This document shows, one piece after another, positions 1,080 to 41,553 of a stretch of DNA of 64,000 bases (the first letter of the stretch is position 1; each line of letters begins with the position of its first letter). The notes beneath the pieces were generated by a model. The model made no database searches. It saw only the letters and a program-made list of their open reading frames with translations, and was not told the DNA's origin. The DNA lies in contig OY970327.1 of the NCBI GenBank assembly GCA_963717365.1, positions 720,348-784,347 on the forward strand, given 5' to 3'. Made by a program: the position numbers and the translations under genes. This DNA comes from Candidatus Saccharimonadia bacterium (GTDB lineage: Bacteria > Patescibacteriota > Saccharimonadia > Saccharimonadales > 2-12-FULL-41-12).

Positions 1080-3281
<2,202 letters not shown>

Positions 3282-6143: not shown

Positions 6144-6665
6144 CTAGCTACTTACAACTTCTAGATCCTTGGTTTCGATTGTCCCCAGGTAGAGAACATG
6201 CGGTGCTCCTGCATACGTCAGCGGCTGTTCGCCTTGTGCACGGGCGTCCCGGTAATGCTGCTTAGTAATTTCGGGCAGATGGTTATTCTGGAGGTAATTC
6301 TCCTCAGTAAATGGCAGATATTCTTTTTCATACTGCCCTTCGCCCTTTTTATGGGTCACCATAATAGTCATTTTAGACTGGTCCAGACTGCTAGCGTCAA
6401 TCCGGAACGCTCTCCAAGACATATCTACTGGAGCACCTGTCTCTTGCATCGCTAACTTAACTTCTGTCGGATCTATCGGCGACAAGTGAATTACACTGTT
6501 CCAGTTGCCCAAGCCGGGGACTTCAGTATCCTTCACGTCTTCCCTGCCTTCATATTTGGCAGCCTGCCCGTCAAAAAGCTCTGGCAGCTTATATTTCATC
6601 TCATTGAGCGAATACAAAACGGTGCCCCGCATATCTTCTGGAACAAAGTGATATAAATACATCAT
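6144..6665 (-). CDS. hypothetical protein
   Basis: 173-aa ORF overlapping the stop of the upstream TrmB-family gene by 4 nt (operon). No recognised domain. Confidence 0.6.
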   Translation of the reverse strand: MMYLYHFVPEDMRGTVLYSLNEMKYKLPELFDGQAAKYEGREDVKDTEVPGLGNWNSVIHLSPIDPTEVKLAMQETGAPVDMSWRAFRIDASSLDQSKMTIMVTHKKGEGQYEKEYLPFTEENYLQNNHLPEITKQHYRDARAQGEQPLTYAGAPHVLYLGTIETKDLEVVSS

Positions 6666-7411
6666 AACTGTCCCGTTTTAGTATTCGCCCACAGGTGCTT
6701 AAAGATTATATTAAACGTAGCTGCTAAAATTTGATTGGTAATAATCGTCACCACTAAGCTCGGCTGGTACACAGTAAAGGCTATTTTGTCATCGTAAATT
6801 GCCACTTCTCCTTCGTGCGGTTGGCCATCCCAGAAACGGACTTCGTAGCCTTTATCGTTAAAATTTTTGATGTTTATCTCATTTTCAACCTCACTACTAA
6901 AAAGTATAAGAGAATGATTGGGCTTCTTGCGCGCATGAGCGTAGACCTCGAGCGCCTCCCGCGCTTCTTTATTCTTCGATGTCACGTCGCTGGCAAGAAT
7001 ACTTACCACTTGCTTCGACGCGGCCATATCCGTCAGTGACTTTTTATAGCCATTAATACCTTCTAGATATACTACCCCGGGCGTATGCTGTCCCAGGTTA
7101 TACTGCGAAATCAGCTCAGGCAAGACACTATTTAACGCAACGTTCGCCTGGCGCAACTCCATTTGCCGGGTCGTTATCAGTGCTTTTAATTTATCTGGGC
7201 TGGCAGGTGCGTATGTTCGGGGAGCAGTAGTATCGTCAATCACGACAAGTTTGTCGCCCGCAAGCCGCTCCAGTATTGTATAAACGTTTGTTCGACTCTC
7301 CTTCAATTCTTTAGCAAGCTGTGCTGCCGTCATACTTCCTTTTTCAATCAAGAAAAGATAGAATTTTGCTTCTTTGGCATTAAGACCGAGCCAGGCAAGA
7401 ACTTCTTCCAT
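6662..7411 (-). CDS. TrmB-family transcriptional regulator
   Basis: N-terminus LGLNAKEAKFYLFLIEKGSMTAAQLAKELKESRTNVYTILERL matches the TrmB winged-helix HTH. C-terminal TrmB-like effector domain. Confidence 0.75.
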   Translation of the reverse strand: MEEVLAWLGLNAKEAKFYLFLIEKGSMTAAQLAKELKESRTNVYTILERLAGDKLVVIDDTTAPRTYAPASPDKLKALITTRQMELRQANVALNSVLPELISQYNLGQHTPGVVYLEGINGYKKSLTDMAASKQVVSILASDVTSKNKEAREALEVYAHARKKPNHSLILFSSEVENEINIKNFNDKGYEVRFWDGQPHEGEVAIYDDKIAFTVYQPSLVVTIITNQILAATFNIIFKHLWANTKTGQL

Positions 7412-7569
7412 ACCAACATTTTACTATAAATGAATATTAGTGTCAATATTTTTACGACACTTTTAACACCTTATTTTTTATAATTTTATGTAATAGTATT
7501 GACACTATAGATACTTTTATGTAATAATACTACCCAAGTTCCAAATAGTGGGCAATAAGGAGAAAATTA

Positions 7570-9374: not shown

Positions 9375-9423
9375 TGTACTATATCTCAACTTAATGAAAG
9401 CTTAATGAAATGCAAGTATGGTA
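9375..9423. repeat. 49-bp palindromic intergenic repeat (REP-like family), degenerate copy
   Basis: gtactatatctcaacttaatgaaagcttaatgaaatgcaagtatggtac shares GTACTATATCTC...TAATGAA...GTATNGTAC ends and length with copies at 18019, 29931 and 39291. Lies between convergent genes. Confidence 0.6.
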
Positions 9424-9513
9424 CTTGGGACTATGGTAGTGGCTTGGGTTAATGGAGGTGGTACTGAGTGTGCATCTAAAAAGTATCAAAAACCGTATTC
9501 GGTGCCAACTGAG

Positions 9514-18018: not shown

Positions 18019-18067
18019 GTACTATACGTCGAGTTCATTAAATTTTAATGAACTCGACGTATAGTAC
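18019..18067. repeat. 49-bp perfect palindrome, archetype of a REP-like intergenic repeat family
   Basis: gtactatacgtcgagttcattaaa t tttaatgaactcgacgtatagtac has 24-bp arms that are perfectly complementary. Located 93 nt after the rplT stop. Confidence 0.85.
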
Positions 18068-18159: not shown

Positions 18160-18535
18160 AGGTGTCAGATTATGTATAAGCCGGGTTCTGTACACTAGCC
18201 AAAGGCTAATGTGCTGATCATCTATCTAGTCATGCCGTTGCCGGCACAATCAAGCGGATCTTATAACGAGCCTTCGGTGGGAACCTATTGAAGACACATT
18301 TCCTTGCAACAGACAGGGTTTACCTCCCTCAGCGGTCACCCGCAAAGGCTGTGAGCTCTTACCTCACTCGTTTCATCCTTACCGATCCAAGGTAAACCTT
18401 GAAAAGGCGGTATAGTTTCTGTGGCACTTTCCCTAAGGTTGCCCTTGGTCGCCATTAACGACTGTCCTTCCCTATGCTGCCCGGACTTTCCTCGTATGTC
18501 GTAAAACACACGCGATCAGCCGATAATCTGACCTT
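18160..18535 (-). ncRNA. rnpB: RNase P RNA (bacterial type), M1 RNA
   Basis: Minus strand carries GGAAAGUCCGGGC (complement of plus 18479-18491) ~45 nt from the predicted 5' end. ACAGAACCCGGCUUA (complement of plus 18177-18191) lies ~290 nt downstream, matching the universally conserved P4 strands and their spacing. 5' (GGUCAGAUUAU) and 3' (AUAAUCUGACACC) ends can pair as P1. The region is ORF-free and GC-richer than its surroundings. Confidence 0.88.
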
Positions 18536-19309: not shown

Positions 19310-20287
19310 TTATGCAGCGAGGGAGCCGTCAATTTTATTGACGTGAGGAGTCTTCAAGATAAGATTTCGCTCTGTGCGACGCTCCAACACCTTAAGCGAA
19401 TCATTAAAATAGATTTTAGTCCCCGGCACATAGACATGACTCAGATTCTGCGCAAAGAATACACCCTTATTCTTGGAGTCGTAGGCGTTTTCACCTCTTC
19501 GCGAGCTGGCTAGACCTTGCCTAACTGCTTTGCCCGTCGTCTCGGCAGTCCTCTGGTCAATATCAACTACCGCGCAGCGGTCGCAAGCCTTTACTACAAA
19601 CGCCGATAGCTGGCCAATCTGTACTTTCAGCCAGAAATCCTCGTCGTAAGGTTCCAAATACTCTCCATCTACAACTATATTAGGACGAAATCGATCCATT
19701 TCCACCGCTTGATCGATATCAGCATTTAATTGTGCGAGTGATGTATTTGAAGCCAAAAGTATTGCATGAGCATAGGCAAATCCAACTTTATTCGAAACTC
19801 CTTCTTTTTGATACAACTCACCGATATTTCGTGGCTTGTCCTCACGAACTTTTATAAGACGGTAAGCCTGACTATCCTTATATCGGGATAGACAATCTGT
19901 AAACCAGGCGTTGACTTCATCGCTAACAATCTGGCCGCACACCGGTTTTTTATTCAGCGCTGTCCACATTAGTCTGTCATTATCTGGTTCCATCTGTAAT
20001 GGAAATTCAAGGTCATCAATACCCGGCGCGCTCAGTGTCAGTGCGCTGTGGCCTATTTTAGGTACAATCAGTGCCAGTTCCGGAATCTGCTGCTGAGTCA
20101 CATAGTTGCCATTATCATCAACCAGCATGTAATCTCGATCGTGCTTTATCCCCCGCGGCGTGATCTCAGCCTCTTCAAGCCGCACGCCGGCGCAAGATTT
20201 TATCGGATAGGTATATAAACCCATCACATCAATATATATTGGCTCGCTCACCGCGGCGTCAGCATCATAAATAGGGTCATATTCCAT
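19310..20287 (-). CDS. MOSC domain protein (MOSC_N beta-barrel + MOSC)
   Basis: YPIKSCAG near the N-terminus (MOSC_N). The C-terminal MOSC-like region has a conserved Cys (VVKACDRCAVVDID). Confidence 0.7.
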   Translation of the reverse strand: MEYDPIYDADAAVSEPIYIDVMGLYTYPIKSCAGVRLEEAEITPRGIKHDRDYMLVDDNGNYVTQQQIPELALIVPKIGHSALTLSAPGIDDLEFPLQMEPDNDRLMWTALNKKPVCGQIVSDEVNAWFTDCLSRYKDSQAYRLIKVREDKPRNIGELYQKEGVSNKVGFAYAHAILLASNTSLAQLNADIDQAVEMDRFRPNIVVDGEYLEPYDEDFWLKVQIGQLSAFVVKACDRCAVVDIDQRTAETTGKAVRQGLASSRRGENAYDSKNKGVFFAQNLSHVYVPGTKIYFNDSLKVLERRTERNLILKTPHVNKIDGSLAA

Positions 20288-20376
20288 TAATTTACTGTAT
20301 CATAAATAGCAAATAATGCAAATTAAACAAGTGCGACGAATGAGCCTGTTTTGCAATTACTTATCTGGGTTTTTCT

Positions 20377-21747
20377 CTAAGAAGCGTGAGCGTAAGCCGG
20401 TTGCCGGATCAACTGCAGGTCCATCTCTGTTCCATATCCCTGGCTGTCGTTAATAGCAAGCTGAATTCTGGCGTTCTGAGGATCAACTGGTTCGCCAGCA
20501 ACAATACGATGTAATTCATTGTCAGGGTCATACGCAAGACTAGCCAAGGTTGAACCATCTTCTCCCTGACTCCATTCAATCGCGTCGTTCATGCGGCTCT
20601 CGCCGCTTCTTCGTATCGCGGTGTCCGAGTCAAATTCGACAAATCCTAGTTTCCAAAGCGCGGCCGCGGCTCCACCAACATAATCAGTTTGATCCTGAAT
20701 ATTATTATGCAACTGCCAGTTATTGCTAGTGAAACTCTCGGTAGTAAAGGCCTTCCCGCTGTTCTCTAATGCTACAGGTCCTGTTCGCTTGACAGAAGTT
20801 GGCGTTAAAGGCAGTTCCTGCGTAACAACATCGCCTAAAATCTGATAATTAAGGAGTGAAAAACTGCCGCCAATGTAGCGCTTATCGGCAGCCTGTTTCA
20901 GTGTTGATTTTGCCAAATCATCATAATCAGAAGCTGTAATGCCAAAGCGACGTGGCAGTGACCGAGAGAAAGCATCAGAATCACGCTTCGCAAAACTCTC
21001 GCCGAGCTGATTGGCCTTCTTCTGCATCTCAAAGTAACGGTCGTTTTGCATATTAACTTCATATTGCCTGTCGCGCTGATTTTGTTCGGCAGTCAGACGT
21101 TTCCGCTTTTCGGGATTTTCCTCAAGGTGTTTCTCCCAGGCTTTTTGCTTTTCAGTTTCAAACTGAGCTAAACGGCGATCAAGTGCTTGCTGACGCTTAT
21201 CATCAATAAGATCCAGCTTCTTATTAGCCCAGGATTCAACTGGACCCCTTTTAGCATTGCTGGCAGCCTGATTCTTCTTGGCAAGGCGTTCCGCTTTTTG
21301 AGTTGAACGCTGTAATCCGTTCCTATTTACACGATTAGTAAGGCTCAATATGTGAAGGCCAAGACGACGGCGTTTGCTTTTGGCTATTTCACCTAAATGG
21401 GTCTGCGGTAAAACTGCCTTGGAATTTGCTAGGTTTACACTTCTTTGGTAACGCTCAGCTTTTTGGCGGTTGCCCTCTTCGCGGTTTTCAGAAAATACTC
21501 TTGGCACATCTTTTGCGATAAGCACCAGATTAGCGACTGTAGAAACAGCCGCGCGTCCAAGCCGCTTAGTAAAGCCTACGTCGCGCTTTTTCGCCTGGCG
21601 TTGCTCGTGGATCCAATCATTCCAGATTGGTGCACCAGGAAAGGCTTCTTGTGCACCTTCAAGGCGTGCTGCACGTTTTGATTCACGTCGCCATTGTATG
21701 TCGCGCTGTATTTGTTCTTTTTTTGTATATTTTGGTGCCTTTGGCAT
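20377..21747 (-). CDS. hypothetical basic coiled-coil protein
   Basis: 456-aa Lys/Arg/Gln/Glu-rich ORF. No recognised domain. Confidence 0.55.
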   Translation of the reverse strand: MPKAPKYTKKEQIQRDIQWRRESKRAARLEGAQEAFPGAPIWNDWIHEQRQAKKRDVGFTKRLGRAAVSTVANLVLIAKDVPRVFSENREEGNRQKAERYQRSVNLANSKAVLPQTHLGEIAKSKRRRLGLHILSLTNRVNRNGLQRSTQKAERLAKKNQAASNAKRGPVESWANKKLDLIDDKRQQALDRRLAQFETEKQKAWEKHLEENPEKRKRLTAEQNQRDRQYEVNMQNDRYFEMQKKANQLGESFAKRDSDAFSRSLPRRFGITASDYDDLAKSTLKQAADKRYIGGSFSLLNYQILGDVVTQELPLTPTSVKRTGPVALENSGKAFTTESFTSNNWQLHNNIQDQTDYVGGAAAALWKLGFVEFDSDTAIRRSGESRMNDAIEWSQGEDGSTLASLAYDPDNELHRIVAGEPVDPQNARIQLAINDSQGYGTEMDLQLIRQPAYAHAS

Positions 21748-21817
21748 AATTATTACAGTATAGCACTATTTGTCTAAAATGTCAATGTATATCCGCGTTC
21801 AGTTACTTGCGCACAAG

Positions 21818-22990
21818 CTATGGCTTACCATCGTCTACCTTAGCCCGTTCATGACGGCTTAAAGCTAACCTTGTGACGCTAGGCCACGACTTGAGTGGAA
21901 AAACCTGAAGCATTCTGGAGGTTATATTACCAGCCATTGCTGGATCTAGGCCCTGATTATCAATATAGTGATTGCGGAGTGCCCCAAAAGCTTCAGCAGC
22001 AGCTTGGGTTCGTTCACGAAAAGCTGGAGCTACCTCACCTGGGTTAAAGTATTGGTTAACAATTATATCGGTGATCCCTGCTAGTATCTTAACGACTCGC
22101 TCCGGTGGGAAATCCGGATGACCTCCCGGAACCCTTTCGTCCATCATAACCAATTGAGTAAAGTAGGCATCCAGCTCATCTTTATACAATTGTTCTTGGG
22201 GCGTGTCAGTGTTTTCTAAATTTTTTATGGCCTGCTTAAATAGTTTTCGCATGCCTTCATCCTCTTCAACCATTTTCATAGTACCCATAAAAAGTTCTCT
22301 GGTGTAAGCTTCGGTTGTTCCATTGTTAAGCAAGTGCCGATCCTCATGTAGAATAGACGCTTCGTAGTTGTCGTGCGCTGCTTGATTATCAGGCTCCTCC
22401 GGCCGAGCCACAAAAAGCGTAGGTATCGTATGTATAACCGACAACGGGATAGGACAGTAAAATGCCGTGGCCTGCCCCTTTCGCGGTCCCATCATTATGG
22501 TTTGCAGATGATCAATATCATCCTGATCTAGCTCAAACTTCAGAGAAGTAGGACCGTTTACAGCTTTTACGGAACCGGTTAGGTCTATTCGTTTTCCTAA
22601 GCTACCTAGTGCTTCGTGAAAAAGTCGGCTGGATAACTTAGGTCCAGCAGTTTCCCCTGTCTCATCGATTGTAGTAGGCTCTTCCTGTCTCATCGATTGA
22701 CGAGTTGCGCTCCAAAAAGAATTAATAGTGGCTTTACGCTCAGCCATATTCCTAGCACCACAGGCAAAAACTTTCCGGTATGGGGCAAGCGGGGGGTATT
22801 TATCGGCAATCTCAAGGGCGGCATCCGACCATTCCCAGGAATTAGCGGTTGTCATTACTTTAGTTTCAAATTCAATTTGGGCAAGAGCGTAGCTCTCCGC
22901 TACTTCAATAATGCCACCCCTAGGTATCGTTTCTGATTGTTCGGCGGTGATATCATTATTTTCAATTGGGGGACGTTCTGGTGTGGGCAT
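21818..22990 (-). CDS. hypothetical protein
   Basis: 390-aa ORF. No recognised domain. Confidence 0.55.
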   Translation of the reverse strand: MPTPERPPIENNDITAEQSETIPRGGIIEVAESYALAQIEFETKVMTTANSWEWSDAALEIADKYPPLAPYRKVFACGARNMAERKATINSFWSATRQSMRQEEPTTIDETGETAGPKLSSRLFHEALGSLGKRIDLTGSVKAVNGPTSLKFELDQDDIDHLQTIMMGPRKGQATAFYCPIPLSVIHTIPTLFVARPEEPDNQAAHDNYEASILHEDRHLLNNGTTEAYTRELFMGTMKMVEEDEGMRKLFKQAIKNLENTDTPQEQLYKDELDAYFTQLVMMDERVPGGHPDFPPERVVKILAGITDIIVNQYFNPGEVAPAFRERTQAAAEAFGALRNHYIDNQGLDPAMAGNITSRMLQVFPLKSWPSVTRLALSRHERAKVDDGKP

Positions 22991-23168
22991 TTTTTCTCTC
23001 TCAAGGAATCCCTTGCCTGCTTCTATTTTGTAACCATATTTTTATATTTATATTTCATTACGCACATAATAGCACTATTTTATATATTTGTCAATTATAT
23101 CGTATATTTCTGAAGCATATCTGCCTTAAATGTTTGACTTATTCTATATTATATGTTAATATTTATAA

Positions 23169-24362
23169 ATGTCTATTGAAGCCGGCGGTGAGGTTGGTGG
23201 CTATAACCGCAGAGAAATACTAAAACTAGGTGCTGTATTTGGCGGTGGTGTTCTCACGGCTCAACTTGGCCCAGAAATTACTGGATTACCTGAAGTAAAG
23301 CCACATTATACTGAGGGCGATGTCATCCAGACTCCTATTGGCGATCTGGTAGTCGAGGGCTGGCAAGTTCAAAGAGCAATCAAAAAAACCGATGATCCTA
23401 ATGGTCTTGATGATTTCAAAATAAGTATTGTTGATGAGTTTGGTTCCAGCACTTATTTCGAAAAAAATGGTGGCTCGTATGTGCTTGGCCGCGGTAAATC
23501 GGGTAAATTTGTGGATGCGCTGCCCTTTTATCCGTCACCGTATGGAGACCCAGTTACTCTCATTTTAAATATGGGATCACGAGCAGTCGCCCACGCCAAT
23601 AGCGGTAATCCTACGGTAGCGTACTCAATAAAACCTAGGGTTTTCACTGAAAGCCAATCAATTGAGTATGGTTTTGTTCTTTCTCAGGAGCCAGTTGACC
23701 TGGGGCAACTGAAGCAGGTCGCAAATTTAAGAGAAGCCTTCCAGCCATTTGTACTGGGCCTTGCCCCAATCTATGTATTTGCCGATACAACAAAAACTGT
23801 CAAAGACGAGGTTATATCTGGTGGCAGCCAGGATTCCAGGAAGGGCGTCATAGAAATGCAGACTAGCGCTTTTACTAACCCGCTGTACGAGGGTGAAGCG
23901 CTTGGTACAGCATTTCACGAATTATCTCATGAATTTATTCGACATTTACTAGAAAATACCGCGGCTTATCCCAGTAGCGCAGATATAGTTTATGGTCTGC
24001 AAGGAGCTTATAAGCCAATAGCGGCAACCTATAAAGGCGAGTACCGCGCCGATACATTAGCTGGAATACTGACTGAATCCACCTACATACATGTTCCTGG
24101 TAAGCCTGTTGGCTCTTCTCGTGCCGGACATCCCCAGGATAATTTTAATGAAATGTTTGCCTCAACCATGACGATCATGCGCTTTCATACCGAACCATTT
24201 TTGGCTGCCTTTGATAAATTGAAGGACACCGACAAACACTTAATCAAAAGCTTTGTTCGCGCTACGTTTAACGCTTTAGCGGAAACGGGCGCTTCGGATA
24301 AAAAATTACAAAATCTACTGCCGGAGGCGGCTATAATTAAGCATCGTGTACTGGGTAGATAA
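23169..24362 (+). CDS. putative Tat-secreted HExxH metalloprotease-like protein
   Basis: N-terminal NRREILKLGAVFGGGVLTA resembles a twin-arginine signal. HELSHE motif (FHELSHEFIRHL). A -10-like TAATAT ends 6 nt before the ATG, so the mRNA may be leaderless. Confidence 0.6.
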   Translation: MSIEAGGEVGGYNRREILKLGAVFGGGVLTAQLGPEITGLPEVKPHYTEGDVIQTPIGDLVVEGWQVQRAIKKTDDPNGLDDFKISIVDEFGSSTYFEKNGGSYVLGRGKSGKFVDALPFYPSPYGDPVTLILNMGSRAVAHANSGNPTVAYSIKPRVFTESQSIEYGFVLSQEPVDLGQLKQVANLREAFQPFVLGLAPIYVFADTTKTVKDEVISGGSQDSRKGVIEMQTSAFTNPLYEGEALGTAFHELSHEFIRHLLENTAAYPSSADIVYGLQGAYKPIAATYKGEYRADTLAGILTESTYIHVPGKPVGSSRAGHPQDNFNEMFASTMTIMRFHTEPFLAAFDKLKDTDKHLIKSFVRATFNALAETGASDKKLQNLLPEAAIIKHRVLGR

Positions 24363-24477
24363 CTTACAACACTTGGTAGCTTGGTAGGTAGCGGTACGAG
24401 ATTATTCGGAAAACTTTTATTAGTATCTCGGTTCTTTTTGCATAGTTACTAGAAATACTCTTCTTTCGGGGTCAATT

Positions 24478-25629
24478 TTATAGAGTTGTGGCCACGGCCT
24501 TACGAACTAAATAGTCATCCATAATTGTATATTCATCGTCATTACCGGGAATTGGCTGCCAATTATCTTCCGGGTATAGTTTATCTTCCTCATCACTATA
24601 GTACTCGGTAACGTCACACAAGAAACCGGTATTCATCTCAAGCTTGTTGCCTGGCCAGAGCGAAACGAAGTAAACCATAACCTGCTCTTGTTGAGTTAAG
24701 CTGTTGGGCGAGTCTTGGGCATCAACCGTGAGTTCATTGGCTAACTGTCTTGCATGTTGCTTAGGAATATGCCCGTTTACGGCATGCAATATATTTAGGC
24801 CAATTACACTCTCGGGTGTCAGGGCGGAGTTAATCTCAGGATATACAGCCTGAATTGTAGTAGTGTGTGGTTCGGCTTTCGGATTTGGATCAAGTAGCCC
24901 AAAAGTCCAAACTAGATCCGGGTTGTCACCAGGAACAGCTTCACCGGTTTCCTGCAACGTCTTAATATACTCCTCGCGGGTAACTAAAGCACCGGCTGTT
25001 GTCATATATCTTAAGCTATCGGTTGGAGACGAACCATAAATCGTGTCATCAGCCTGTGCGTCGGTATGTATAACAGGATCAAACGGGCTTGCACCACCCT
25101 TGATTGACCTGTATGCAACTGCTGCCTCAGCCATTCTTTGCCGGTGGGTCAAGTTCTGTCTGAAATCAATATTCATTGGAGCTGGCATTACTCGTGTGCC
25201 TGGATTAACTTCCAGAGCGGTTTGTAGTTTTGAAACTTGGTCTTCGCTTAGTTCCGGCATTCTATAGCCCAATTGTCCCCAAAATGCGCTAGTGATTTCG
25301 AGCTGCTCGCCAGCACTCAGAGGATGCTCAGTATCAAGGTAATTCTCGACGCGCCATTCCAGTAGCTCGCCCTGCATAGCGGCTTCATCACTGGTATTTT
25401 CGGCGGTTACGGCGGGCAGGCCAGCTCTTACTCTTGCTTCTGCCATCTGGCTTTCAAGGCCTTCAAGCCCAGCCATGAGCATATCGTCAGGAATATCGTC
25501 AGACATACCGGCCACGAAACGATTAGTCATCCTTAAATAATCTTGGCGTGCTCGATCTAAGTCGGCCATTGGATCACTGGAGGAGTCGCCTTCGTCGCCG
25601 GTGGTTTGTTTTGGCGCTTTTTCAGACAT
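24478..25629 (-). CDS. hypothetical acidic protein
   Basis: 383-aa ORF. No recognised domain. Confidence 0.55.
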   Translation of the reverse strand: MSEKAPKQTTGDEGDSSSDPMADLDRARQDYLRMTNRFVAGMSDDIPDDMLMAGLEGLESQMAEARVRAGLPAVTAENTSDEAAMQGELLEWRVENYLDTEHPLSAGEQLEITSAFWGQLGYRMPELSEDQVSKLQTALEVNPGTRVMPAPMNIDFRQNLTHRQRMAEAAVAYRSIKGGASPFDPVIHTDAQADDTIYGSSPTDSLRYMTTAGALVTREEYIKTLQETGEAVPGDNPDLVWTFGLLDPNPKAEPHTTTIQAVYPEINSALTPESVIGLNILHAVNGHIPKQHARQLANELTVDAQDSPNSLTQQEQVMVYFVSLWPGNKLEMNTGFLCDVTEYYSDEEDKLYPEDNWQPIPGNDDEYTIMDDYLVRKAVATTL

Positions 25630-25911
25630 GGATGTTTGCCTTTTTCATAAATACTACTGTAGCATACTTTATGAAATATTGCAAGCATAAGCATACTCGT
25701 ATAAACCTTCCGACGACAGATTTAAATATCGAAACAATAGTGAAAACCTACTAACTTAGAAGCGTAAGTTTTTACTTTTTGTAAATTAACTTACTAGGTT
25801 TACCTGAATCTCATGGAAAGAAAAAAACAGAGCTACAAGATAATCCACGTCCTTAGTTAAGTTGTATGTACATTGTAATCAATAATTTTGATCGTGATTG
25901 GCTAGTAGCCA

Positions 25912-26484
25912 TTAACCTTGGGCAGCTTGGCGTGCTTCTGGTTGAGGATCAAAAATCTGACCTTCAATATAACGCAGGCTTTCACCAAGTGCATTATGCC
26001 CAATAGTTTGTGCAAGAAGCGTTAAACCATCTCTGGTTACGGTTATGTGTTCTTCACTACCTTCTTCTGCTACTGATATAGTCGGCTCTATAAGTTCGTC
26101 AGCCGTTCTAAGCCATATATCTGAAACATCTAGGCTCGTAAAAGCGGGGTCAAGACGAGCAACTTGCGCAGTATATTTATCAAACCTTACTCTAAAGCAT
26201 TTTATGTCTGGTAGTTTCCAGTTGTTAACAATAGTATCGCCGCTTAATCCTGAACTTTTATCAATAACGACAGCACCGCCAGAGACTTCTAAGTAATTAG
26301 CAACTCCTCTTGGCCTGACAGTAAGAGAAATTAGCCCGCTACTTTTTATAGCTTCTGCTACAAACTCCTTGCGTATACCTAATTTTTCTTCTGCTAAGCT
26401 AGGAAGTTCCGCTTTATAGGTTTCTCGTTCTGCGACAGCTTGTCTGGCTTCTCTATTTCGGCGTCTTTGGGCACGGGTAGGCAT
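25912..26484 (-). CDS. hypothetical protein
   Basis: 190-aa ORF, last gene of a three-gene minus-strand cluster. Confidence 0.5.
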   Translation of the reverse strand: MPTRAQRRRNREARQAVAERETYKAELPSLAEEKLGIRKEFVAEAIKSSGLISLTVRPRGVANYLEVSGGAVVIDKSSGLSGDTIVNNWKLPDIKCFRVRFDKYTAQVARLDPAFTSLDVSDIWLRTADELIEPTISVAEEGSEEHITVTRDGLTLLAQTIGHNALGESLRYIEGQIFDPQPEARQAAQG

Positions 26485-26501
26485 AATAATTCCTTTGAGA
26501 T

Positions 26502-26786
26502 TTAGGTCTGATTAAGCTGACCGTCTAATGATTCTTTCATTGCAACACTACCAATTACAGCACCCAGGTAGAATAAATCTGATTCTTTGGGATCTTCTGC
26601 TCCCATTCCCAAAAGAATTGATTCTAGCAATGCCCCGCTTTGAACATCATACTGTACCCTAGTTCCAAACTGTAAACCCCTTCTAAAATCACGAGAAAGA
26701 GGACTGATGTCTCTAATGACATCAACTAAATGGCCTTTAATTTCTAATGTAATACGGTCTTCACCGTCTCTTGGCAATTCACTCAT
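26502..26786 (-). CDS. hypothetical protein
   Basis: 94-aa ORF between two hypothetical genes on the same strand. Confidence 0.45.
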   Translation of the reverse strand: MSELPRDGEDRITLEIKGHLVDVIRDISPLSRDFRRGLQFGTRVQYDVQSGALLESILLGMGAEDPKESDLFYLGAVIGSVAMKESLDGQLNQT

Positions 26787-26840
26787 AATAGTAAGTATTT
26801 ATACTATATCTTAGATGTGCTGTCAAAACCCAGAAAATCT

Positions 26841-27434
26841 CTAATGTGTGGGTTCTTGGCGAGTGAGCGGTTGGCGAACGAAAATCTCTCGCTGCGTGTA
26901 TACGCCATCATCTTCGCCTGGGCCAGGCTGGGCAAAGTACGGACCAGCTTGTTCTAAGTAGGTCTTAGCGGTTTCTAAGTCGCCGCAGTCAAGCCAAACG
27001 ACACTAGAGGAGCCATCAAGTGCATCGTTATCGTTAACAGTTTCTCGAATAGCAACTGAACCGACTGGTCGATCAGCAAGTGCTTTCTCGGGGTCTTCGG
27101 CATCCCGCATTCTCTGCATTAGCTCTGGGTCCCTTAACTCATCGTTGTGCCTAATAGTAAAACCGCCAAACTCCGGTGGACGATTTTCTGCACTAGCTTC
27201 GCGGTGTATACGAGCAGAACGGGTTGACGGCCACTCAAAGTCGCCAGTTACCAAACCTGCCGCAGCCATCGTGGCATAGGCTGCATCTGCGTGGTCGGTT
27301 CGGGCTTCACGGTTAGTTTGCTGCACTCCCTTTGTTGAAGCGTTGGCAAGCATCTCCATTTCATCTTCGTGATCCTCACGCCGAGTTGCGTGATAATCAA
27401 TTGCTATTTTCTTTTCTGACTCATTGGATGACAT
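26841..27434 (-). CDS. hypothetical acidic protein
   Basis: 197-aa ORF. Confidence 0.5.
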   Translation of the reverse strand: MSSNESEKKIAIDYHATRREDHEDEMEMLANASTKGVQQTNREARTDHADAAYATMAAAGLVTGDFEWPSTRSARIHREASAENRPPEFGGFTIRHNDELRDPELMQRMRDAEDPEKALADRPVGSVAIRETVNDNDALDGSSSVVWLDCGDLETAKTYLEQAGPYFAQPGPGEDDGVYTQREIFVRQPLTRQEPTH

Positions 27435-27518
27435 AGTTATATCCTTACATTTTATCTATTTTTGTTTTTGTATCCTACGAACAATATTAGCATAAGTTGT
27501 TTATAATGTCAAGGTTCG

Positions 27519-27594
27519 TGGTCGGGGTGACAGGACTTGAACCTGCGACCTCACGGCCCCCAGCCGTACGCGCTACCAACTGCGCTACACCCCG
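27519..27594 (-). tRNA. tRNA-Pro (anticodon GGG)
   Basis: Reverse complement CGGGGTG-TA-GCGC-AGTTGGTA-GCGC-G-TACGG-CTGGGGG-CCGTG-AGGTC-GCAGG-TTCAAGT-CCTGT-CACCCCG-A-CCA folds as a cloverleaf with anticodon GGG. Confidence 0.85.
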
Positions 27595-27697
27595 TTGTCT
27601 GTTCGCCTATCTGGACAGTCAACTAACGACTTCGAATTATAGCATAGCAACAGACATAATACTTTACATTATCAAATATTTGTGCTATAATAGAATA

Positions 27698-28624
27698 ATG
27701 TCTCATCATAAAAATAAAAACTTAGAATTAACTGTTATCGACGATAACGAGCATAATCAACAACTTGCACAGCCCGCCAATATGGCAGAGCAGATCCGAG
27801 CACGGATGTCCGAAGCGCCTGTCTTCCTCGATGACAACGAACAGCGGCTTGGCACCACCGCTTACCGGTACGGCGCCTGGCCGGCTACCCCGGACACCGA
27901 TGGCCGTATCCTGACCGAAGAAATCGTCCCCGATCAGGAAGTCCTCGATATGGATGGCGAACGGGATTATTTCAGTGAAGACGCGCCTTCCCAGGCACTC
28001 GACCGCTACATGACAACTAAGGTCTTTACGAACATCATGGAGAGTGATTTAGCTCCCGCGATCCGTGTGTTTGATTTTGTTGGAAGAGAGGATGCCCTCG
28101 ACGACAACGGCTCTACCCTGCTGGCGGCAAGTTATCCGAACGCGGCTACTTTTAACGAACGACTGGCACAGACCGGCAACGCCGGTCTCACCGTAGAAGA
28201 GTTAGCACAGGAAGATTATTCAAATCAGCGTGTAGTTGAAATGGTCGCCGAAGGGCGCCTGCCGGTGACCGACCCCACCACTATGGTCATGAACGCGCCC
28301 GTCTGGGCGTTACTCCCGCCCGAAGTCCACCAGGCACTGGGCGAAAAAGCCCGTAACTGCCTGGAATCCGGCGGCACCGACGTAAACCGGGTAGCCGGGA
28401 GTATTGCCAGTATGAATCTGCTAATTTTTGGTTCTAAATTAATCAATGCGGCCAGCGAAGACCAGCCTATCGATCCGGGATACTCTGAAATTGATAAACT
28501 TGGAGAACAGCTTAACCAATTATTACGCGCCCCAGGCGGAGAAGACCTTGAAGATCACGGCCGTGCACTGGCCGAACTTACCGTTGCCCACATCCGCAAA
28601 CTCGATGCCCTAAACACAGTATAA
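27698..28624 (+). CDS. hypothetical protein
   Basis: ORF-track start 27497 overlaps tRNA-Pro on the other strand. ATG at 27698 (MSHHKNKN...) is preferred and sits just downstream of an extended -10 (tgcTATAAT, 27683-27691), so the mRNA may be leaderless. Confidence 0.55.
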   Translation: MSHHKNKNLELTVIDDNEHNQQLAQPANMAEQIRARMSEAPVFLDDNEQRLGTTAYRYGAWPATPDTDGRILTEEIVPDQEVLDMDGERDYFSEDAPSQALDRYMTTKVFTNIMESDLAPAIRVFDFVGREDALDDNGSTLLAASYPNAATFNERLAQTGNAGLTVEELAQEDYSNQRVVEMVAEGRLPVTDPTTMVMNAPVWALLPPEVHQALGEKARNCLESGGTDVNRVAGSIASMNLLIFGSKLINAASEDQPIDPGYSEIDKLGEQLNQLLRAPGGEDLEDHGRALAELTVAHIRKLDALNTV

Positions 28625-28629
28625 AATTA

Positions 28630-28890
28630 ATATTTTTAGTCATTTATTTACTAAAAATATTGTCGAATGGAAAAGGAGGATCCCAAGGCTTTAGCCTTGG
28701 CTAAGGAGGAAAAACCCTAAGCGAAGCTGGGTTTTCCCTCCTTAACAGCCGAGTGCGGCCGACGTGATTAACTTGGCTAAGATACCAAGTGGGTGATCGC
28801 ACATGGCGGCCGCAGCCCCCATAAATATTGATCTCCCAAATCACAAACTATTCAAGATAATCTAGTGTCGGTTATTCCGCTCTCGACCTC
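28630..28890. other. highly structured 260-bp convergent intergenic region (multiple hairpins, SD-like motifs without ORFs); candidate ncRNA of unknown class
   Basis: Hairpins ccaaggc-ttta-gccttgg, ggaggaaaaaccc-taagcgaagct-gggttttccctcc (13-bp stem), gctgcggccg...cggccgcag and acttgg-ctaagata-ccaagt. Direct repeat cttggctaag x2. Two AAGGAGG motifs not followed by start codons. Confidence 0.35.
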
Positions 28891-31371: not shown

Positions 31372-32286
31372 TCAAACTTGGGTAAATTTAGAGATATATT
31401 CCATCGCTTCGTCTTCCGACTGAACCCAAATGATATCCTGGTTACGCTTAAACCACGTCTTTTGTCGCTTCGCCAGGTCTTTATCGCTCTTAACAAATAA
31501 CTCCTTAGACTCCTCAAGGCTTATCTCACCTTCAAGATGTTTACGAGCAGCTTTATATCCGGGCGTTAGTAAACCGGTAGCTTCTGAGCCATACTGGTTG
31601 ATCACATTTTGTACCTCTTTAATAAAGCCTGCGACAAACATTGTATCCACCCGTCCTTTAATCCGCTCAATCAACTTTTCACGTTCAATATTTATTCCAA
31701 GCATTAGTATGTTGGTGGGTTTTAATTTGCGATTTGGTTTCAATTTTATTTTTAAATTTTTATTGTGCGGCGAAACTTTGCTATTAATATTCACGGCAGC
31801 GGCACGTTCTACGGCGCGGCTTAAGTGCCGATGGTTCTTAAAATCAACGTCCATTTCCGCAACGCCCAGCGCCCGTGCCCGGCCTTGCAAATCAGCCAGG
31901 CTCATTGCTTCAAGTTCAGCTCGCTGGCTGCGGTCGGCTTCGCCGCCAAAATTAAAGTCATACACAAAACCGTCTATATATAAACCGGTGCCGCCTACGA
32001 TTATCGGCAGACTGCCGCGGCCGTGAATTTCATTAACTTTTAATGAAGTGTACTGTTTGAAAGCGGCCGCAGAAAAATACTGGTCCGGTTCAATTAAGTC
32101 CAGCCCGTGGTGCGGCACTACCCGCCTGTCCGCCGCGGACGGCTTCGCCGTCCCGATATCCATGCCTTTATATATAGTCCGTGAATCGGCGCAAATAATC
32201 TCGCCGCCAAACTGCAAAGCGGCGCGGATTGCCAGCGCAGACTTGCCGCTGGCCGTCTGGCCGGCAATAACGATTATCGGCTTCAC
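31372..32286 (-). CDS. miaA: tRNA dimethylallyltransferase
   Basis: P-loop IVIAGQTASGKSALAIRAA, DSRTIYKGMDIGTAKP, and overall MiaA length and motifs. Confidence 0.85.
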   Translation of the reverse strand: MKPIIVIAGQTASGKSALAIRAALQFGGEIICADSRTIYKGMDIGTAKPSAADRRVVPHHGLDLIEPDQYFSAAAFKQYTSLKVNEIHGRGSLPIIVGGTGLYIDGFVYDFNFGGEADRSQRAELEAMSLADLQGRARALGVAEMDVDFKNHRHLSRAVERAAAVNINSKVSPHNKNLKIKLKPNRKLKPTNILMLGINIEREKLIERIKGRVDTMFVAGFIKEVQNVINQYGSEATGLLTPGYKAARKHLEGEISLEESKELFVKSDKDLAKRQKTWFKRNQDIIWVQSEDEAMEYISKFTQV

Positions 32287-35311: not shown

Positions 35312-35367
35312 AGTCACTTCCTTCTTGGTTTCCCTGTTACAGCACTTGCTTTTGCTTGCTGGCAGCA

Positions 35368-35399
35368 TTTCATTAAGATTTAATGAAACCTCGATAGCA
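35368..35399. repeat. partial copy (right half) of the REP-like palindromic repeat inside the thrS leader
   Basis: ttcattaagatttaatgaaacctcgatagca aligns with ttcattaaattttaatgaaacgccgatatagta of the 29931 copy. Confidence 0.55.
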
Positions 35400-35401
35400 A
35401 T

Positions 35402-35436
35402 AAAAAAACACATAAAGACTGGTTGTCGTTTATGTG
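35402..35436 (-). terminator. intrinsic terminator within the thrS 5' leader (attenuator)
   Basis: Minus strand reads cacataaa-cgacaaccagtc-tttatgtg followed by tttttttt, ~90 nt upstream of the thrS start. Confidence 0.65.
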
Positions 35437-35580
35437 CGTCGGTCCCTGTTAAAACGGCTTCTTGGCCGCTAAAGGGAGGTTCCACCTCGGCTTTTACTAT
35501 TGCAGCATTGGTTATCGTACGTCTGCTGCCGCTCCAACGAAGCTCCGTGGCTGGTTAGGCCGCATCACCGCTTATCCATC

Positions 35581-35609
35581 AGTATACGACGGTAGGGGAC
35601 TAAAAACAA
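35581..35609 (-). promoter_or_regulatory. candidate thrS promoter TTGTTT-17-TATACT (minus strand)
   Basis: Minus strand has ttgttt (35609-35604), a 17-nt spacer, and tatact (35586-35581). This would give a ~265-nt leader. Confidence 0.4.
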
Positions 35610-35643
35610 AAAACCTTGTGGCTTCTCGCAAATAGCCACAAGG
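35602..35643 (-). terminator. intrinsic terminator (minus strand) immediately upstream of the thrS promoter
   Basis: ccttgtggc-ttctcgcaaata-gccacaagg stem, followed on the minus strand by ttttttgttttt. Confidence 0.6.
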
Positions 35644-35904
35644 TTTAAGGTCTGCTAAAACACCTAGCAAAATTCCACCAACAAGTACCATGATAGCAAG
35701 GTTAGTATTATATGGCTAGTACTTTTGTATTGTTTTTATTACAATTCCCTAATATATGTAGGGCTCAAGGAGTTAAATGGCTAAATTCAGTAACAATTAA
35801 TAGTTCATTAAATTGTTAAAAAAGCTTATATAAATGCTCAAAATGACCACAATAATCGTTGCAAAGCGGCCATTAATCCTGTATCGTTTAACCTGTTCTA
35901 GAAA

Positions 35905-36353: not shown

Positions 36354-36758
36354 ATGGTCTGTATATATTGTGACTCAAAAATAAAAACTTCTGTCGTAAA
36401 TTCTCGCTCCGGCAATAAAGGCCGTCTGACATGGCGGCGGCGGCAATGCAAACACTGCACTAGTATCATGACAACCCGTGAACAAGTAGACCTGGAGATC
36501 GCTCTGAGAGTATCCGGTTCAAACGGTCTGAAACCCTTTCTAAGGGATCAGTTGTTTATAGATGTCTATAACAGTGTTTCCCACCGAAAAACAGCTCTGG
36601 CGGACGCAGGAAAGCTTACAGATACAATTATTACCCGCTTATTAGACATTCAAGCTGCCGGCATTCTAAATAGGCAGCAGATTATAAAAACTACTGGGGC
36701 TACTTTGCAGCGATTTGATCCTGCTGCCGGGGTCCATTACCAGGCGCGCCATCATTGA
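36354..36758 (+). CDS. nrdR: transcriptional repressor NrdR
   Basis: N-terminal zinc ribbon C-x2-C...C-x2-C (MVCIYCDS...RRRQCKHC) followed by an ATP-cone. Matches the NrdR N-terminal pattern M-C-P-C-x(12-15)-RRR-C-x2-C. Confidence 0.8.
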   Translation: MVCIYCDSKIKTSVVNSRSGNKGRLTWRRRQCKHCTSIMTTREQVDLEIALRVSGSNGLKPFLRDQLFIDVYNSVSHRKTALADAGKLTDTIITRLLDIQAAGILNRQQIIKTTGATLQRFDPAAGVHYQARHH

Positions 36759-39290: not shown

Positions 39291-39339
39291 GTACTATATC
39301 TCGGGTTCATTAAAAAATCATGAAAGGCAGGTATAGTAC
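39291..39339. repeat. 49-bp REP-like palindromic repeat copy
   Basis: gtactatatctcgggttcattaaaaaatcatgaaaggcaggtatagtac. Its flanks (taaGTACTATATCTCG ... TATAGTACTCGAA) are nearly identical to the 29931 copy. Confidence 0.7.
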
Positions 39340-39499: not shown

Positions 39500-39576
39500 G
39501 GGCTCGTGGTGTAGAGGCCTAACATGCCTCCCTGTCACGGAGGAGATCGCCGGTTCGAATCCGGTCGGGCCCGCCA
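39500..39576 (+). tRNA. tRNA-Asp (anticodon GTC)
   Basis: GGGCTCG-TG-GTGT-AGAGGCCTA-ACAT-G-CCTCC-CTGTCAC-GGAGG-AGATC-GCCGG-TTCGAAT-CCGGT-CGGGCCC-G-CCA. Confidence 0.85.
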
Positions 39577-41079
39577 ATTCGGATTTTTGCTGTTGTGACG
39601 CAGCACAGAAAGTGGCTCTCTCACTGTTAGAGCCACTTTTTTGTTACCCAAAGTCCAGTTCGAACCTAGCATCAGCATAATTTGTCGTCGTTCGTTGTCA
39701 TTTCCATGCTTAAACGATGCACCAAGGTTCACAACGCCTGTAAATACCTCTGAAGCTAGTTCTAACCAGCGTTCGGCATCTTGAGTAGATTGTTCAATCA
39801 GTTGATTAGTTCGAGCCTGGGTTGCTTCATGCTCGGCTACACGGCTCTTGTAGCGTTCTGGTGATATGGTTCTAGTCTCTAGGGCTTCGCCCAGTGCTGC
39901 AATCTTATCAGTGGCTTCCTTGTAGTCCTTTTGCCATACAGCAAGATGCTGGTTACGTTGTTTTAGCCTCTCATCATGGTAGTTCCGTATCAACTCTAGG
40001 CATTTAGCACTCTCTTCTGCAGTCATTTCAAACTCTGACACCCGTGCTTGTATTTCAGCCTCAATAGCATGTCTGGCTAGTTGTGGCTGCTTGCAGTTCT
40101 TGACCTTACTTTTATGGGTGCAGACATAGAACTCGTAATACTCAACACTACCATCAGCGAGCGTCTTAGCTTTCGTATAGGCAGTGATATTAAATCCACA
40201 CTCCTCACAAACTAACACGCCTTTATATGGGTAATTCAGTTTGGCAGTATTTGTCCTTTTCACGGGCTTAATCCAGCCCATAGATACTTGTGCCTGGGTG
40301 TATATATCTACTGAAATTAAGGGCTCTTACGTGCCTTGTTGCCACTCTTCAGCTCCATACTTGAAAATACCTGTATACGTCCTGCGGTGCAGTAAGTCGG
40401 CAAGCGTGTTTTTACTCAAGGTTTTGCCAGACTTTGATTTCAGACCAACCGATATAGCCATCTCATACAGGTCATGCAGCGTGTATTGTCCAGTTGCTGC
40501 CGCTTTGAAAAGCTGAACTACTTTTGGTCCATCTACAGGGTCAGGAGCTATGTTACGCTCTCCAGGTTTGATGATAGCGTTTGTATAGCCTAGCGGTGCT
40601 GGTCCAGGGTACTGTCCACGGGCTCGTTTAGTCTCAAAGCCCTCTTTTACCTGTACGCTCAAGTCATCGTTATTTTTCTTAGCCAGTGCTAGTTCAATCG
40701 CAAGCACCATTTTATCGTCTGGAGTATTCCTATAGGTACGAGACGGCGTGTGTATTGCTAATAGCTTTCCTGTATCAAGGGCGTAGATAATTCTGCCGCC
40801 ATCGACAGGGTTACGGCTAAGCCTACTCAACGCCCAAACTGATATGTACCTAGCTTCTCCAAGCTCGATGCGGTCCATCTTATCGTTAAATATAGGGCGT
40901 CCTGGCTGCTTTGCACTCCGTTCTTCGGCTGGTAGGTATATGGGTATCAGGTTGTTGCGTTCGATGATGTGTTGAACTTGCGTGTCCTGCTTCTGAATTG
41001 AGAGTGACTGCCTATCTTCACGGTCCTGAGAGCGTCTCAGGTAAACAAAGGTCTTTGATTTTATGTCGTCTGGCTTCAT
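39535..41079 (-). pseudogene. large serine recombinase interrupted by a single in-frame TAA (N-terminal resolvase domain 41079-40327, C-terminal zinc-ribbon/coiled-coil part 40281-39535)
   Basis: The N-terminal ORF has a resolvase catalytic region (FVYLRRSQDREDRQSLSIQKQ) and a recombinase domain. The downstream ORF is in the same frame and has a CxxC...C zinc ribbon and coiled coil. The only interruption is TAA at 40327-40329; read through it, the frame is continuous (...QQGT*EPLISVDIYTQAQVSMGWIK...). The 3' end overlaps the tRNA-Asp 3' half. Confidence 0.7.
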
Positions 41080-41366: not shown

Positions 41367-41553
41367 TTAATCCTTTCCGACCAAAACACACGTTGAACGT
41401 GTGCATTGTCCAGAACGATTGCCATCTTGACGATTTTCGCAACTGCTGGCAGCTAGTTTTGTGCTGGCTATTTAGCCCAGACTTAAAGTCTTTACACCTT
41501 AGTAACTGTTACTTGGTGCTTTAATGTACCCCTTAATTATACCACCAGACTGG

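Follow-up and report, generated by a model that had tools for sequence, protein, structure and literature searches.

The question that is raised by a stretch of 64,000 nucleotides from a Candidatus Saccharimonadia bacterium (contig OY970327.1; hereafter, "the window") is what maintains a family of 49-bp palindromes (hereafter, "the 49-bp element") between its genes: the folding of a single strand, the mobility of the repeat itself, or the recognition of its sequence by a protein. Saccharibacteria are ultra-small, genome-reduced bacteria; like other bacteria of the Candidate Phyla Radiation, they have very small genomes, few repeats and few known regulators. We find that the 49-bp element is a lineage-specific dispersed repeat of one small Saccharimonadales clade, and that its copies arose by insertion into intergenic spacers in the ancestor of the clade. 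The comparison of the copies further suggests that the element is probably kept as a sequence-specific recognition site for a DNA-binding protein, in a manner that resembles REP (repetitive extragenic palindromic) sequences and the bacterial interspersed mosaic elements (BIMEs).

Our survey is concerned with the window and with 35 loci (cited by their L numbers) from metagenome-assembled genomes (MAGs), about 320 kb in all; the MAG loci were picked for holding a strict-pattern copy of the 49-bp element, and their genes were called by a longest-open-reading-frame (ORF) heuristic. In the window, the pattern GTACTATA-N(28-36)-TATAGTAC is matched by three copies, which begin at positions 18019, 29931 and 39291 (spacing N33), against an expectation of 0.00 from 100 dinucleotide-preserving shuffles, and a looser one-arm pattern adds a fourth 49-bp copy, which begins at position 9376. 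The central 19-mer, at three or fewer mismatches, yields 11 strand-matches in the window against 0.04 expected, with matches also occurring at 3189-3207, 32029-32047 and 35369-35387. The dispersed family of the original prediction is, thus, real, with four copies of 49 bp and none in the shuffles; the limits that had been given for the copies at 18019, 29931 and 39291 are exact, and the first copy, which had been placed at 9375-9423, is located at 9376-9424. The perfect 24-nt arms that had been described for the 18019 copy are found as described. The ends and the centre that had been described as shared by the copies are only partly so: three copies match at their ends, but the right end of the 9376 copy is TATGGTAC, and the exact centre TTCATTAAATTTTAATGAA is found in the 18019 and 29931 copies only, the 9376 and 39291 copies being variants. 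What had been taken for a half copy at 35368-35399 does belong to a copy, but to a degenerate whole one.

A scan of one genome per GTDB species with the strict one-arm pattern has returned 36 loci, 35 of which come from two MAGs of Candidatus Saccharimonadales, JBPCJO01 and CAZIMF01, the 36th being a chance match. The window is syntenic with the two MAGs at approximately 69-82% nucleotide identity, and its ComM-like protein (YifB family) is 69-73% identical to the MAG orthologues, with the next relatives at 63% or less. Fuzzy matching has collected 45 copies (22 in JBPCJO, 19 in CAZIMF and four in the window), all of them 49 bp long and without insertions or deletions; a profile search with nhmmer gave no extra full-length copy, and none with insertions or deletions. 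A JBPCJO piece of 6.9 kb (L163), which was fetched for another purpose, holds three copies that are not caught by the strict pattern, so that the true copy number is probably well over 20 per genome, of the order of 100; the density of the element is approximately one per 5-15 kb of core DNA. The 35 loci of the species scan are far more than a handful of copies, and the lineage-specificity that had been proposed is borne out both by their origin from two related MAGs and by the lack of copies in the outgroup synteny that is described below.

The family is also uncatalogued, as had been supposed. In Rfam, the element matches only models of miRNA-precursor hairpins, with 20-31 bits against gathering scores of 60-211, and the window as a whole matches only RNase P RNA and tRNAs at the gathering threshold; the phage and plasmid collections hold no match to the element; a scan of viral contigs gave two matches, both to one unrelated sequence; and, in the library of papers that was searched, there was no description of the element, or of any dispersed cis-element family in Saccharibacteria. 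A metagenome scan with the inner palindrome alone gave mostly chance AT-rich matches and, among the matches listed, only L075 and L114 seemed related.

The 49-bp element is a dyad of two 24-nt half-sites, located around one central A/T. The half-site reads, together with its flank, tTTnA-GTACTATAYCT-SSRN-TTCATTAAA, where GTACTATA and YCT form the outer box, the next 4 nt form the spacer, and TTCATTAAA forms the inner box. The boxes (positions 1-11 and 16-24) are near-invariant, while the spacer (positions 12-15) occurs in two main states, the G-type, which we refer to as "A" (GCGT), and the C-type, which we refer to as "B" (CGAG, CGAC or CGGG), usually with one of each per element. When the two spacers of an element are set against each other, 54 positions match, fewer than the 76 ± 7 of shuffled partners, so that the elements are preferentially of the form A + B'; pairs 12/38 and 13/37 are unpaired in 29 and 32 of 44 copies, respectively. 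The mid-arm variability that had been noticed originally was, if anything, understated. With spacers whose complementarity is below that of chance, the element is no plain hairpin. The pairs that are formed by the boxes hardly vary and are uninformative on compensation; pair 9/41 covaries (8 double changes), and the covariation of the whole structure, 0.139 against 0.117 in shuffles, is reached by 6 of 500 shuffles and lies within the range that is flagged for related sequences. The palindrome follows from the two-fold symmetry of the conserved boxes, and it is not evidence of a stem that is kept by compensation.

The boxes are hardly found by themselves: in the window, a single GTACTATA is found outside elements, where 1.5 would be expected, and TTCATTAAA without a full element is seen at 24144, at 36865 and within degenerate copies. 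There is no avoidance of GTAC or AGTACT and, hence, no link with restriction-modification. The half-site has a 5' flank rich in T and a 3' flank rich in A, with a weak inverted TTTnA/TnAAA preference; further out, the ungapped flanks pair at chance level (7.7 against 7.3 of 25), with the exception of the long form of JBPCJO that is described below. The orientation of each element was set from its own spacer positions; with this convention, the G-type arm shares its strand with the neighbouring genes and with positive GC skew in 18 cases, against 8. Separately, a (T/C)ACAT(T/A)G/C motif is located at a fixed distance of 12-15 nt outside the core, on one side, in approximately 16 of the 45 elements (L026:144, L027:129, L021:6883 and L017:2565 among them), usually on the side of the upstream gene in tandem contexts; it may be a remnant of a longer inserted unit.

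The part of the element that is maintained over time can be seen at five orthologous sites (seven pairwise comparisons): rplT (three genomes), rpmB-hydrolase, the site upstream of metG, rnc-rpsP, and L002/L010, where the orthology of the flanks is ambiguous. At these sites, identity is 86-88% in the outer boxes and 89% in the inner region; it falls to 57-71% at positions 9-11 and 39-41 and to 50-54% in the spacers, while the ungapped flanks are 22-29% identical, as is random sequence. All five sites, compared in two or three genomes each, are occupied in the other genome or genomes of the clade. These alignments indicate that the boxes have been under purifying selection since insertion, with the selection acting on primary sequence and on a fixed length.

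One copy is located inside a coding sequence, that of dprA, where it encodes LLTILGVNEVLMKPRYS. This copy is not an insertion, because DprA aligns without gaps to outgroup proteins of 48-58% identity. In the three dprA genes, the codons at conserved residues are identical in 8 of 10 cases within the element, against 36 of 149 elsewhere (Fisher p=0.0006); the DprA of the window genome is absent from the best 120 homologues listed. The similarity of the segment to the consensus is 25-27 of 49 positions in the outgroup, 31-32 of 49 in the P0124 lineage (58% identity) and 36-42 of 49 in the clade, and the outgroup segment has 14 of 24 self-complementary pairs. This coding segment may be the source of the family or a site recruited by it. 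Together, the conservation at orthologous sites and the synonymous constraint in dprA point to a putative trans-acting factor and to a genome-wide function. As a separate observation, the dprA segment that encodes LLTILGVNE.LMK..YS is a quasi-palindrome at the DNA level even in outgroups that are without the dispersed family (L165, L166).

The insertion of the dispersed copies is seen by comparison with outgroups. The outgroup locus L160 (GCA_041600715.1; ComM 60% identical) is collinear with the core of the window, with the common gene order gyrB, DUF8128, comM-infC-rpmI-rplT, RNase H, M50 peptidase, hydrolase, miaA, thrS, nrdR, and holds no element in the 21.5 kb that are syntenic with the window core; canonical bidirectional terminators are located downstream of rplT and upstream of the hydrolase stop in the outgroup. 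The der-pth spacer measures approximately 19 bp in the outgroup L165, against 126 bp with an element in L163 (JBPCJO). In the topA-rpoD spacer, a conserved upstream block is located approximately 15 bp past the topA stop in the outgroup; in both MAGs, the same block is approximately 90-190 bp further off, with an element in between. Several of the JBPCJO copies have additional palindromic flanks in common, GGTTGCAAAACTCCCC...CAGCTCAATACATACCTTTA; because these flanks occur beside elements only, the resulting long form of approximately 130 bp was copied as a unit, and the element has also spread in this longer form. No direct repeats that would represent target-site duplications occur at the junctions; no isolated half-sites of a parent insertion sequence (IS) occur in the window and the 35 loci; and no transposase or Y1_Tnp domain occurs among approximately 70 proteins scanned near elements and across the window (8-kb MAG pieces, approximately 6% of the source genome). 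Decayed copies are found at window positions 35354 and 35789, and at L032:7003 and L013:3328.

With respect to genes, the copies are far from being confined to coding regions, since 44 of the 45 are intergenic (ORF heuristic and ARAGORN). In the MAG loci, 7 of 20 convergent, 19 of 99 tandem and 7 of 42 divergent spacers of 60 bp or more contain an element, and the figures for the window are 3 of 7, 0 of 18 and 1 of 10, respectively; in tandem contexts, the distance is approximately 60 nt to the upstream stop against approximately 140 nt to the downstream start. The bias towards gene 3' ends that had been suspected is, therefore, present, both as an enrichment in convergent spacers and as a closer position to the upstream stop. 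The neighbours are ordinary housekeeping genes (rplT, rpmB, metG, rnc/rpsP, atpC, tRNAs, RNase P RNA, gyrB and topA), and the contexts that had been reported for the window copies (rplT, rpmB, a convergent pair, tRNA-Thr/tRNA-Asp) are correct. Downstream of rplT, in the window and in L034, the order is rplT stop, bidirectional terminator, element, RNase P RNA terminator; in L003, a canonical terminator just precedes the element; in L030, the element ends 26 nt before tRNA-Ser. A terminator scan of window regions flags the 18019 copy alone, on the minus strand. Copies stand on either side of topA in both MAGs, one in dprA and the other approximately 53 bp past the topA stop, while gyrB has a copy downstream (L006) or a variant upstream (in the window). 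The island or accessory DNA of the window (19.3-28.9 kb and 39.6-64 kb) contains no copy.

Table 1. Copies, variants and related matches of the 49-bp element in the window, and the copy within dprA.
Coordinates	Strand	Feature	Sequence	Context
9376-9424	-	Full element, the most diverged copy of the window	Inner motif TTAATGAAAGCTTAATGAA, right end TATGGTAC; G-type ("A") arm on the minus strand	Between a convergent 350-aa ORF (+) and a 1061-aa gene (-)
18019-18067		Full element, perfect palindrome	24-nt arms, 1-nt centre; two C-type ("B") arms	Flanked by the terminators of rplT and of RNase P RNA (gene at 18161-18531, minus strand); orthologues in L025 and L034; different palindrome at the same site in L159
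29931-29979	-	Full element		Between convergent rpmB (+) and a metallo-hydrolase gene (-); orthologue L033:1906
39291-39339	-	Full element		Midway between the predicted divergent promoters of tRNA-Thr (-) and tRNA-Asp (+), approximately 40 bp from each -35 box
35354-35402 (about)		Degenerate whole copy	Inner motif TTCATTAAGATTTAATGAA intact at 35369-35387; arms decayed	Upstream of a threonyl-tRNA synthetase-like gene; L033 orthologue gapped over most of the element, last bases align
35789-35837		Decayed remnant	21/49 positions match L033:7851; TTCATTAAA kept	Upstream of tRNA-Val; positional orthologue of the intact L033:7851
3174-3222		Variant ("type 2") palindrome	Inner TTCATGAAATTTTAATGAG in a different 14-bp stem, GCATGCTAGTGAAAC/GTTTCGCTAGCATG	Divergent spacer upstream of gyrB
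32029-32047		18/19 match to the inner palindrome	Without outer boxes	Inside the miaA coding sequence; not conserved in the L033 orthologue; status uncertain, probably not a family member
L028:4974-5022 (CAZIMF), L163:3644-3692 (JBPCJO), L164:1397-1445 (third lineage)		dprA copy		240-300 bp upstream of topA

On these grounds, we propose that the 49-bp element is recognised on duplex DNA by a symmetric protein, a reading to which we assign a probability of roughly 0.4. A two-fold symmetric protein, dimeric or tetrameric, would contact the four boxes at their fixed spacing on the duplex; the spacer would not be a stem, but would be kept non-complementary, preventing the 49-bp dyad from forming a perfect cruciform or hairpin. 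The sites would then play a role like that of the E. coli BIMEs, as protein-bound punctuation or topological sites and not as RNA signals, because they sit between operons, mostly of convergent genes, and beside topA and gyrB. Possible binders are a domesticated transposase and a factor of the nucleoid or of topology. Binding to the duplex is favoured because of the fixed 49-bp geometry, the box-spacer-box pattern of conservation, the non-complementary spacers and the positions outside transcripts.

Several observations weigh against this proposal. With boxes that are both palindromic and invariant, a factor that reads the duplex is inseparable from one that reads a folded hairpin or cruciform. 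Nor is the spacer unconstrained, with a composition of S-S-R-N and a conservation of approximately 50% between orthologues. The strand bias of the G-type ("A") arm also fits a function in RNA or single-stranded DNA and, weak as it is, it keeps the single-strand models open. At two sites between convergent genes, rpmB/hydrolase and 9376, the element is the sole hairpin (the sole strong one of the former spacer, and the sole terminator-like one between 9200 and 9700), and a canonical terminator occupies the rpmB/hydrolase spacer of the outgroup. That copies lie near topoisomerase genes was noticed post hoc.

A further objection comes from variant palindromes. The inner palindrome is found in other well-paired arms in the window, in the 3174 variant (GCATGCTAGTGAAAC...), at L033:127-157 (TACATAATGACGT...) and in L075 (perfect arms of at least 20 nt), and, at the orthologous rplT site of L159 (73% ComM identity), the palindrome is a different one, of 60 bp, in which the outer box and right flank (AAAATAGC) of the 3174 variant reappear. 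Because the inner palindrome sits in different arms, the family is a mosaic in which sites keep a palindrome while its dialect changes. The arms of these variants are entirely different, yet perfectly complementary, as in structure conservation, and the variants are the chief indication of a role for structure as well, or for a process that generates palindromes. In addition, at L159 20-110, different palindromes that are based on AGTATATAC, with a 5' T-run and a 3' A-run, occur in the spacer downstream of the DUF8128 gene, which is orthologous to the 9376 site.

A structure-based function in RNA or single-stranded DNA is, accordingly, the first rival to be weighed, and we regard it as possible, if rather unlikely. 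The element would form a hairpin of approximately 24 bp with a conserved internal loop (GxG and CxC mismatches by G.U pairs), whose role would be that of a bidirectional terminator of a non-canonical type or of a transcriptional insulator, that of a hairpin for RNase III-type processing or for stabilisation, or that of an enzyme-recognised hairpin of the lagging strand. The predicted RNA hairpins of the copies are stable (-7 to -37 kcal/mol), and the enrichment in convergent spacers, the closeness to upstream stops, the sole hairpins and the outgroup terminator of the rpmB/hydrolase spacer, the complementary arms of the variants and the covariation at 9/41 are all in keeping with such a function. 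Pair 14/36 is G.U or G-C in 33 of 44 copies on the strand of the G-type arm, which tends to be the sense, G-rich strand; this count is partly circular, because orientation was set from the spacer positions. However, the hairpin has no U-tract, and its flanks have the reverse polarity. Canonical terminators are common and precede the element at rplT (window and L034) and in L003, so that these copies would rarely be transcribed; 7-8 copies are located between divergent genes, and one lies just upstream of tRNA-Ser. The better-folding strand follows the direction of the genes in 12 tandem cases against 6, which is not significant. A function that depended on structure only would permit compensatory drift, whereas the boxes are 86-89% identical amid randomised flanks. 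The same flank polarity, intervening terminators and divergent copies run counter to the terminator half of the "terminator-insulator" that had been put forward; an insulator that acts at the level of DNA is the only form in which that idea could stand.

The second rival, a purely selfish, non-autonomous element without host function, is in our view unlikely. In this case, two transposase-binding ends, located head to head, would be mobilised in trans, as in a MITE (miniature inverted-repeat transposable element) or a REP-like element, and would be tolerated at harmless positions only. The copies are insertions with respect to the outgroup, a longer shared unit has been copied to unrelated JBPCJO loci, and decayed copies are present; the ends of insertion sequences are two-domain, which the two-box arm resembles; the enrichment in convergent spacers is what insertion tolerance predicts, and the recently acquired island DNA is without copies. 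Set against this are the lack of target-site duplications at the junctions, the lack of isolated half-sites or a parent IS in the approximately 320 kb and the lack of a transposase among the proteins scanned. Moreover, a neutral parasite would be expected to have decayed at the compared sites, but all five are occupied, with conserved boxes amid random flanks, and the dprA copy is constrained at synonymous sites without being an insertion at all.

Two other readings are very improbable. As a bidirectional promoter cassette, the element would use its outward TATAGT as -10 and its central TTAAAA as -35; TTAAAA-16-TATAGT does score 9/12 inside several copies, and some copies are located upstream of tRNA genes or metG, but the direction with the better -35 faces a gene start in 11 of 28 cases and is antisense in 17, the predicted promoters use TTGCAA/TTGTAA -35 boxes elsewhere in the same spacers, 7-8 copies lie between convergent genes, and the conservation of the inner box of the same arm is left unexplained; the promoter was rejected because orientation does not follow gene starts. 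Equally improbable is a DNA uptake sequence (DUS) in inverted pairs, like the DUS pairs of Neisseria: Saccharibacteria are naturally transformable, the copies are found in core DNA only and not in island DNA, and one of them lies in the competence gene dprA, but single half-sites are not over-represented, the boxes being essentially confined to elements, the density is far under that of known uptake sequences, and 49 bp is far larger than any of them.

Further candidates were tried and rejected: a canonical terminator, by the reversed flank polarity and the co-resident real terminators; and a transcription-factor operator or regulon site, by the mostly convergent spacers, the positions downstream of terminators and the lack of a fixed distance to predicted promoters. 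If abutted, the outer boxes would read like an NrdR box (ACACTATATATAGTGT), and nrdR is present at 36354-36758, but 33 bp separate the boxes, and nrd genes do not lie downstream of them; we regard the likeness as a coincidence. A TrmB-like regulator (6662-7411) was rejected as the binder, its own promoter region carrying a different inverted repeat. The divergent promoter region of this regulator gene contains, at 7438-7507, an 18-nt inverted repeat, TAGTGTCAATATTTTTAC/GTAATAGTATTGACACTA, which is probably the regulator's own operator.

Recognition of the duplex by a symmetric protein can be extended to a wider picture, in which the element is the cis site of a genome-wide DNA-organising system, with approximately 100 four-box dyads and a putative binder on a 1.2-Mb chromosome. 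This system would set topological or insulation boundaries between transcription units and around topA and gyrB, and its motif would have been seeded by, or recruited from, the ancient quasi-palindromic dprA segment that is located just upstream of topA. Taken jointly, with the boundaries between transcription units, the topA/gyrB sites and the dprA seeding or recruitment all included, we hold this picture to be quite doubtful. The element is of interest in any case as a long, dense element of fixed geometry, which is conserved at orthologous sites though neutral DNA is saturated. A genome-wide function is testable, as members of the phylum are now culturable and transformable; the family offers a clear example of a palindromic element that was first mobile and then became fixed under selection, and it provides a specific metagenome marker for the clade.

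Other features were seen in the vicinity of the copies. The outgroup orthologue of the 1061-aa gene beside the 9376 copy is DUF8128, and the gene has weak TraD/VirD4-like matches in the window. A block of approximately 320-370 nt at 35420-35790 (minus strand; L033 7469-7803) is 82-100% identical to JBPCJO, with the flanking genes at approximately 70-77%; it has a minus-strand intrinsic terminator at approximately 35400-35436 and one weak Rfam match under the gathering score, and is a candidate for an unannotated non-coding RNA between the threonyl-tRNA synthetase-like gene and tRNA-Val. Another strongly conserved non-coding block, located at 28640-28890 (L033 199-330) beside the M50-peptidase gene, contains a paired TAAGGAGGAAAAACCC/GGGTTTTCCCTCCTTA stem and looks like a leader. 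A parS-like TGTTTCACGTGAAA adjoins the inner-palindrome copy in L027 1560-1640 (JBPCJO, tsaD-valS spacer) and in L114 1440-1510, which are unrelated sequences; the 580-bp spacer of L027 also has a TTTTCCACA box that resembles a DnaA box, and may be an origin-proximal region.

The accessory parts of the window are of two kinds. The segment at 19310-28890, approximately 9.6 kb of mostly Pfam-less genes with a tRNA-Pro, is located between the RNase H and M50 peptidase genes, which are adjacent in the outgroup L160. At 39500-41079, a large serine recombinase is split into a resolvase-domain part (40327-41079) and a zinc-ribbon part (39535-40281), the latter ORF overlapping tRNA-Asp at its 3' end; to the right, up to 64 kb, there follow hypothetical genes and an OLD-family nuclease, and the region from 39500 looks like a decaying integrated island. 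Other long quasi-palindromes of unrelated sequence, with 23-nt and 20-nt arms, a single central base and an internal mismatch block, are located in this island part at 53043-53089 and 41375-41415, respectively.

Compared with known systems, the 49-bp element is neither a canonical terminator nor a promoter or uptake sequence, nor a REP or MITE of the classical kind. It resembles an intrinsic bidirectional terminator in being a hairpin-forming dyad between convergent genes, as in the rpmB/hydrolase spacer, where the outgroup has a terminator; unlike one, it has no A-tract or U-tract, its stem is AT-rich with an internal mismatch, and its primary sequence is conserved. Like the Rickettsia palindromic elements (RPEs), it forms a palindromic family of a reduced genome, one member of which lies within an ORF; unlike the in-frame insertion of an RPE, the dprA copy adds no residues, DprA having the same length in outgroups, and the other copies are nearly all intergenic. 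The palindromic sites of Noc (NBS), SlmA (SBS) and MatP (matS), as well as parS, are likewise under sequence selection over the core chromosome, where our element probably numbers tens to approximately 100 per genome, but those sites are 12-16 bp long and often intragenic, in contrast to 49 bp, four boxes, a nearly always intergenic position and a mobile origin.

There is also a likeness to MITEs, including the Correia (NEMIS) elements of Neisseria: non-coding inverted-repeat units are located in intergenic DNA, as insertions with respect to the outgroup, with a longer composite form at several loci. The terminal inverted repeats are present, the 24-nt arms making up the whole element, and insertion with respect to relatives is seen in the enlarged der-pth and topA-rpoD spacers and in the gap of L033 at window 35354. 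Unlike MITEs, the element has no target-site duplication at its junctions, no internal sequence, as the arms abut, no parent IS in the surveyed DNA, and boxes under purifying selection at orthologous sites; typical bacterial MITEs measure approximately 100 bp or more, well above 49 bp.

The closest analogues are the REP, BIME and REPIN elements of Proteobacteria. In a REP/REPIN, the palindrome is imperfect, measures 20-40 nt and has a conserved GTAG at its 5' head and a stem that is rich in G+C, and the genome has a cognate gene for a RAYT (Y1 HUH transposase), usually with REPs on its flanks, whereas the ends here are GTAC, the length is fixed at 49 bp, the sequence is AT-rich with a TTCATTAAAnTTTAATGAA centre, and no RAYT gene is found among the proteins scanned; the original assignment to REP/BIME elements proper is not supported for these reasons. 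Also unlike a REP, each arm carries two boxes around a preferentially non-complementary spacer, and one functional-looking copy is located inside a coding gene. The resemblance is, nevertheless, extensive: both are short, extragenic, many-copy, lineage-specific palindromes, dispersed near gene 3' ends and in convergent spacers, built of two inverted units, with mosaic variants (type 1 and type 2) and vertical persistence at orthologous sites. The REP/BIME elements of E. coli do not only act in RNA: gyrase, IHF and Pol I are among the host proteins that they bind.

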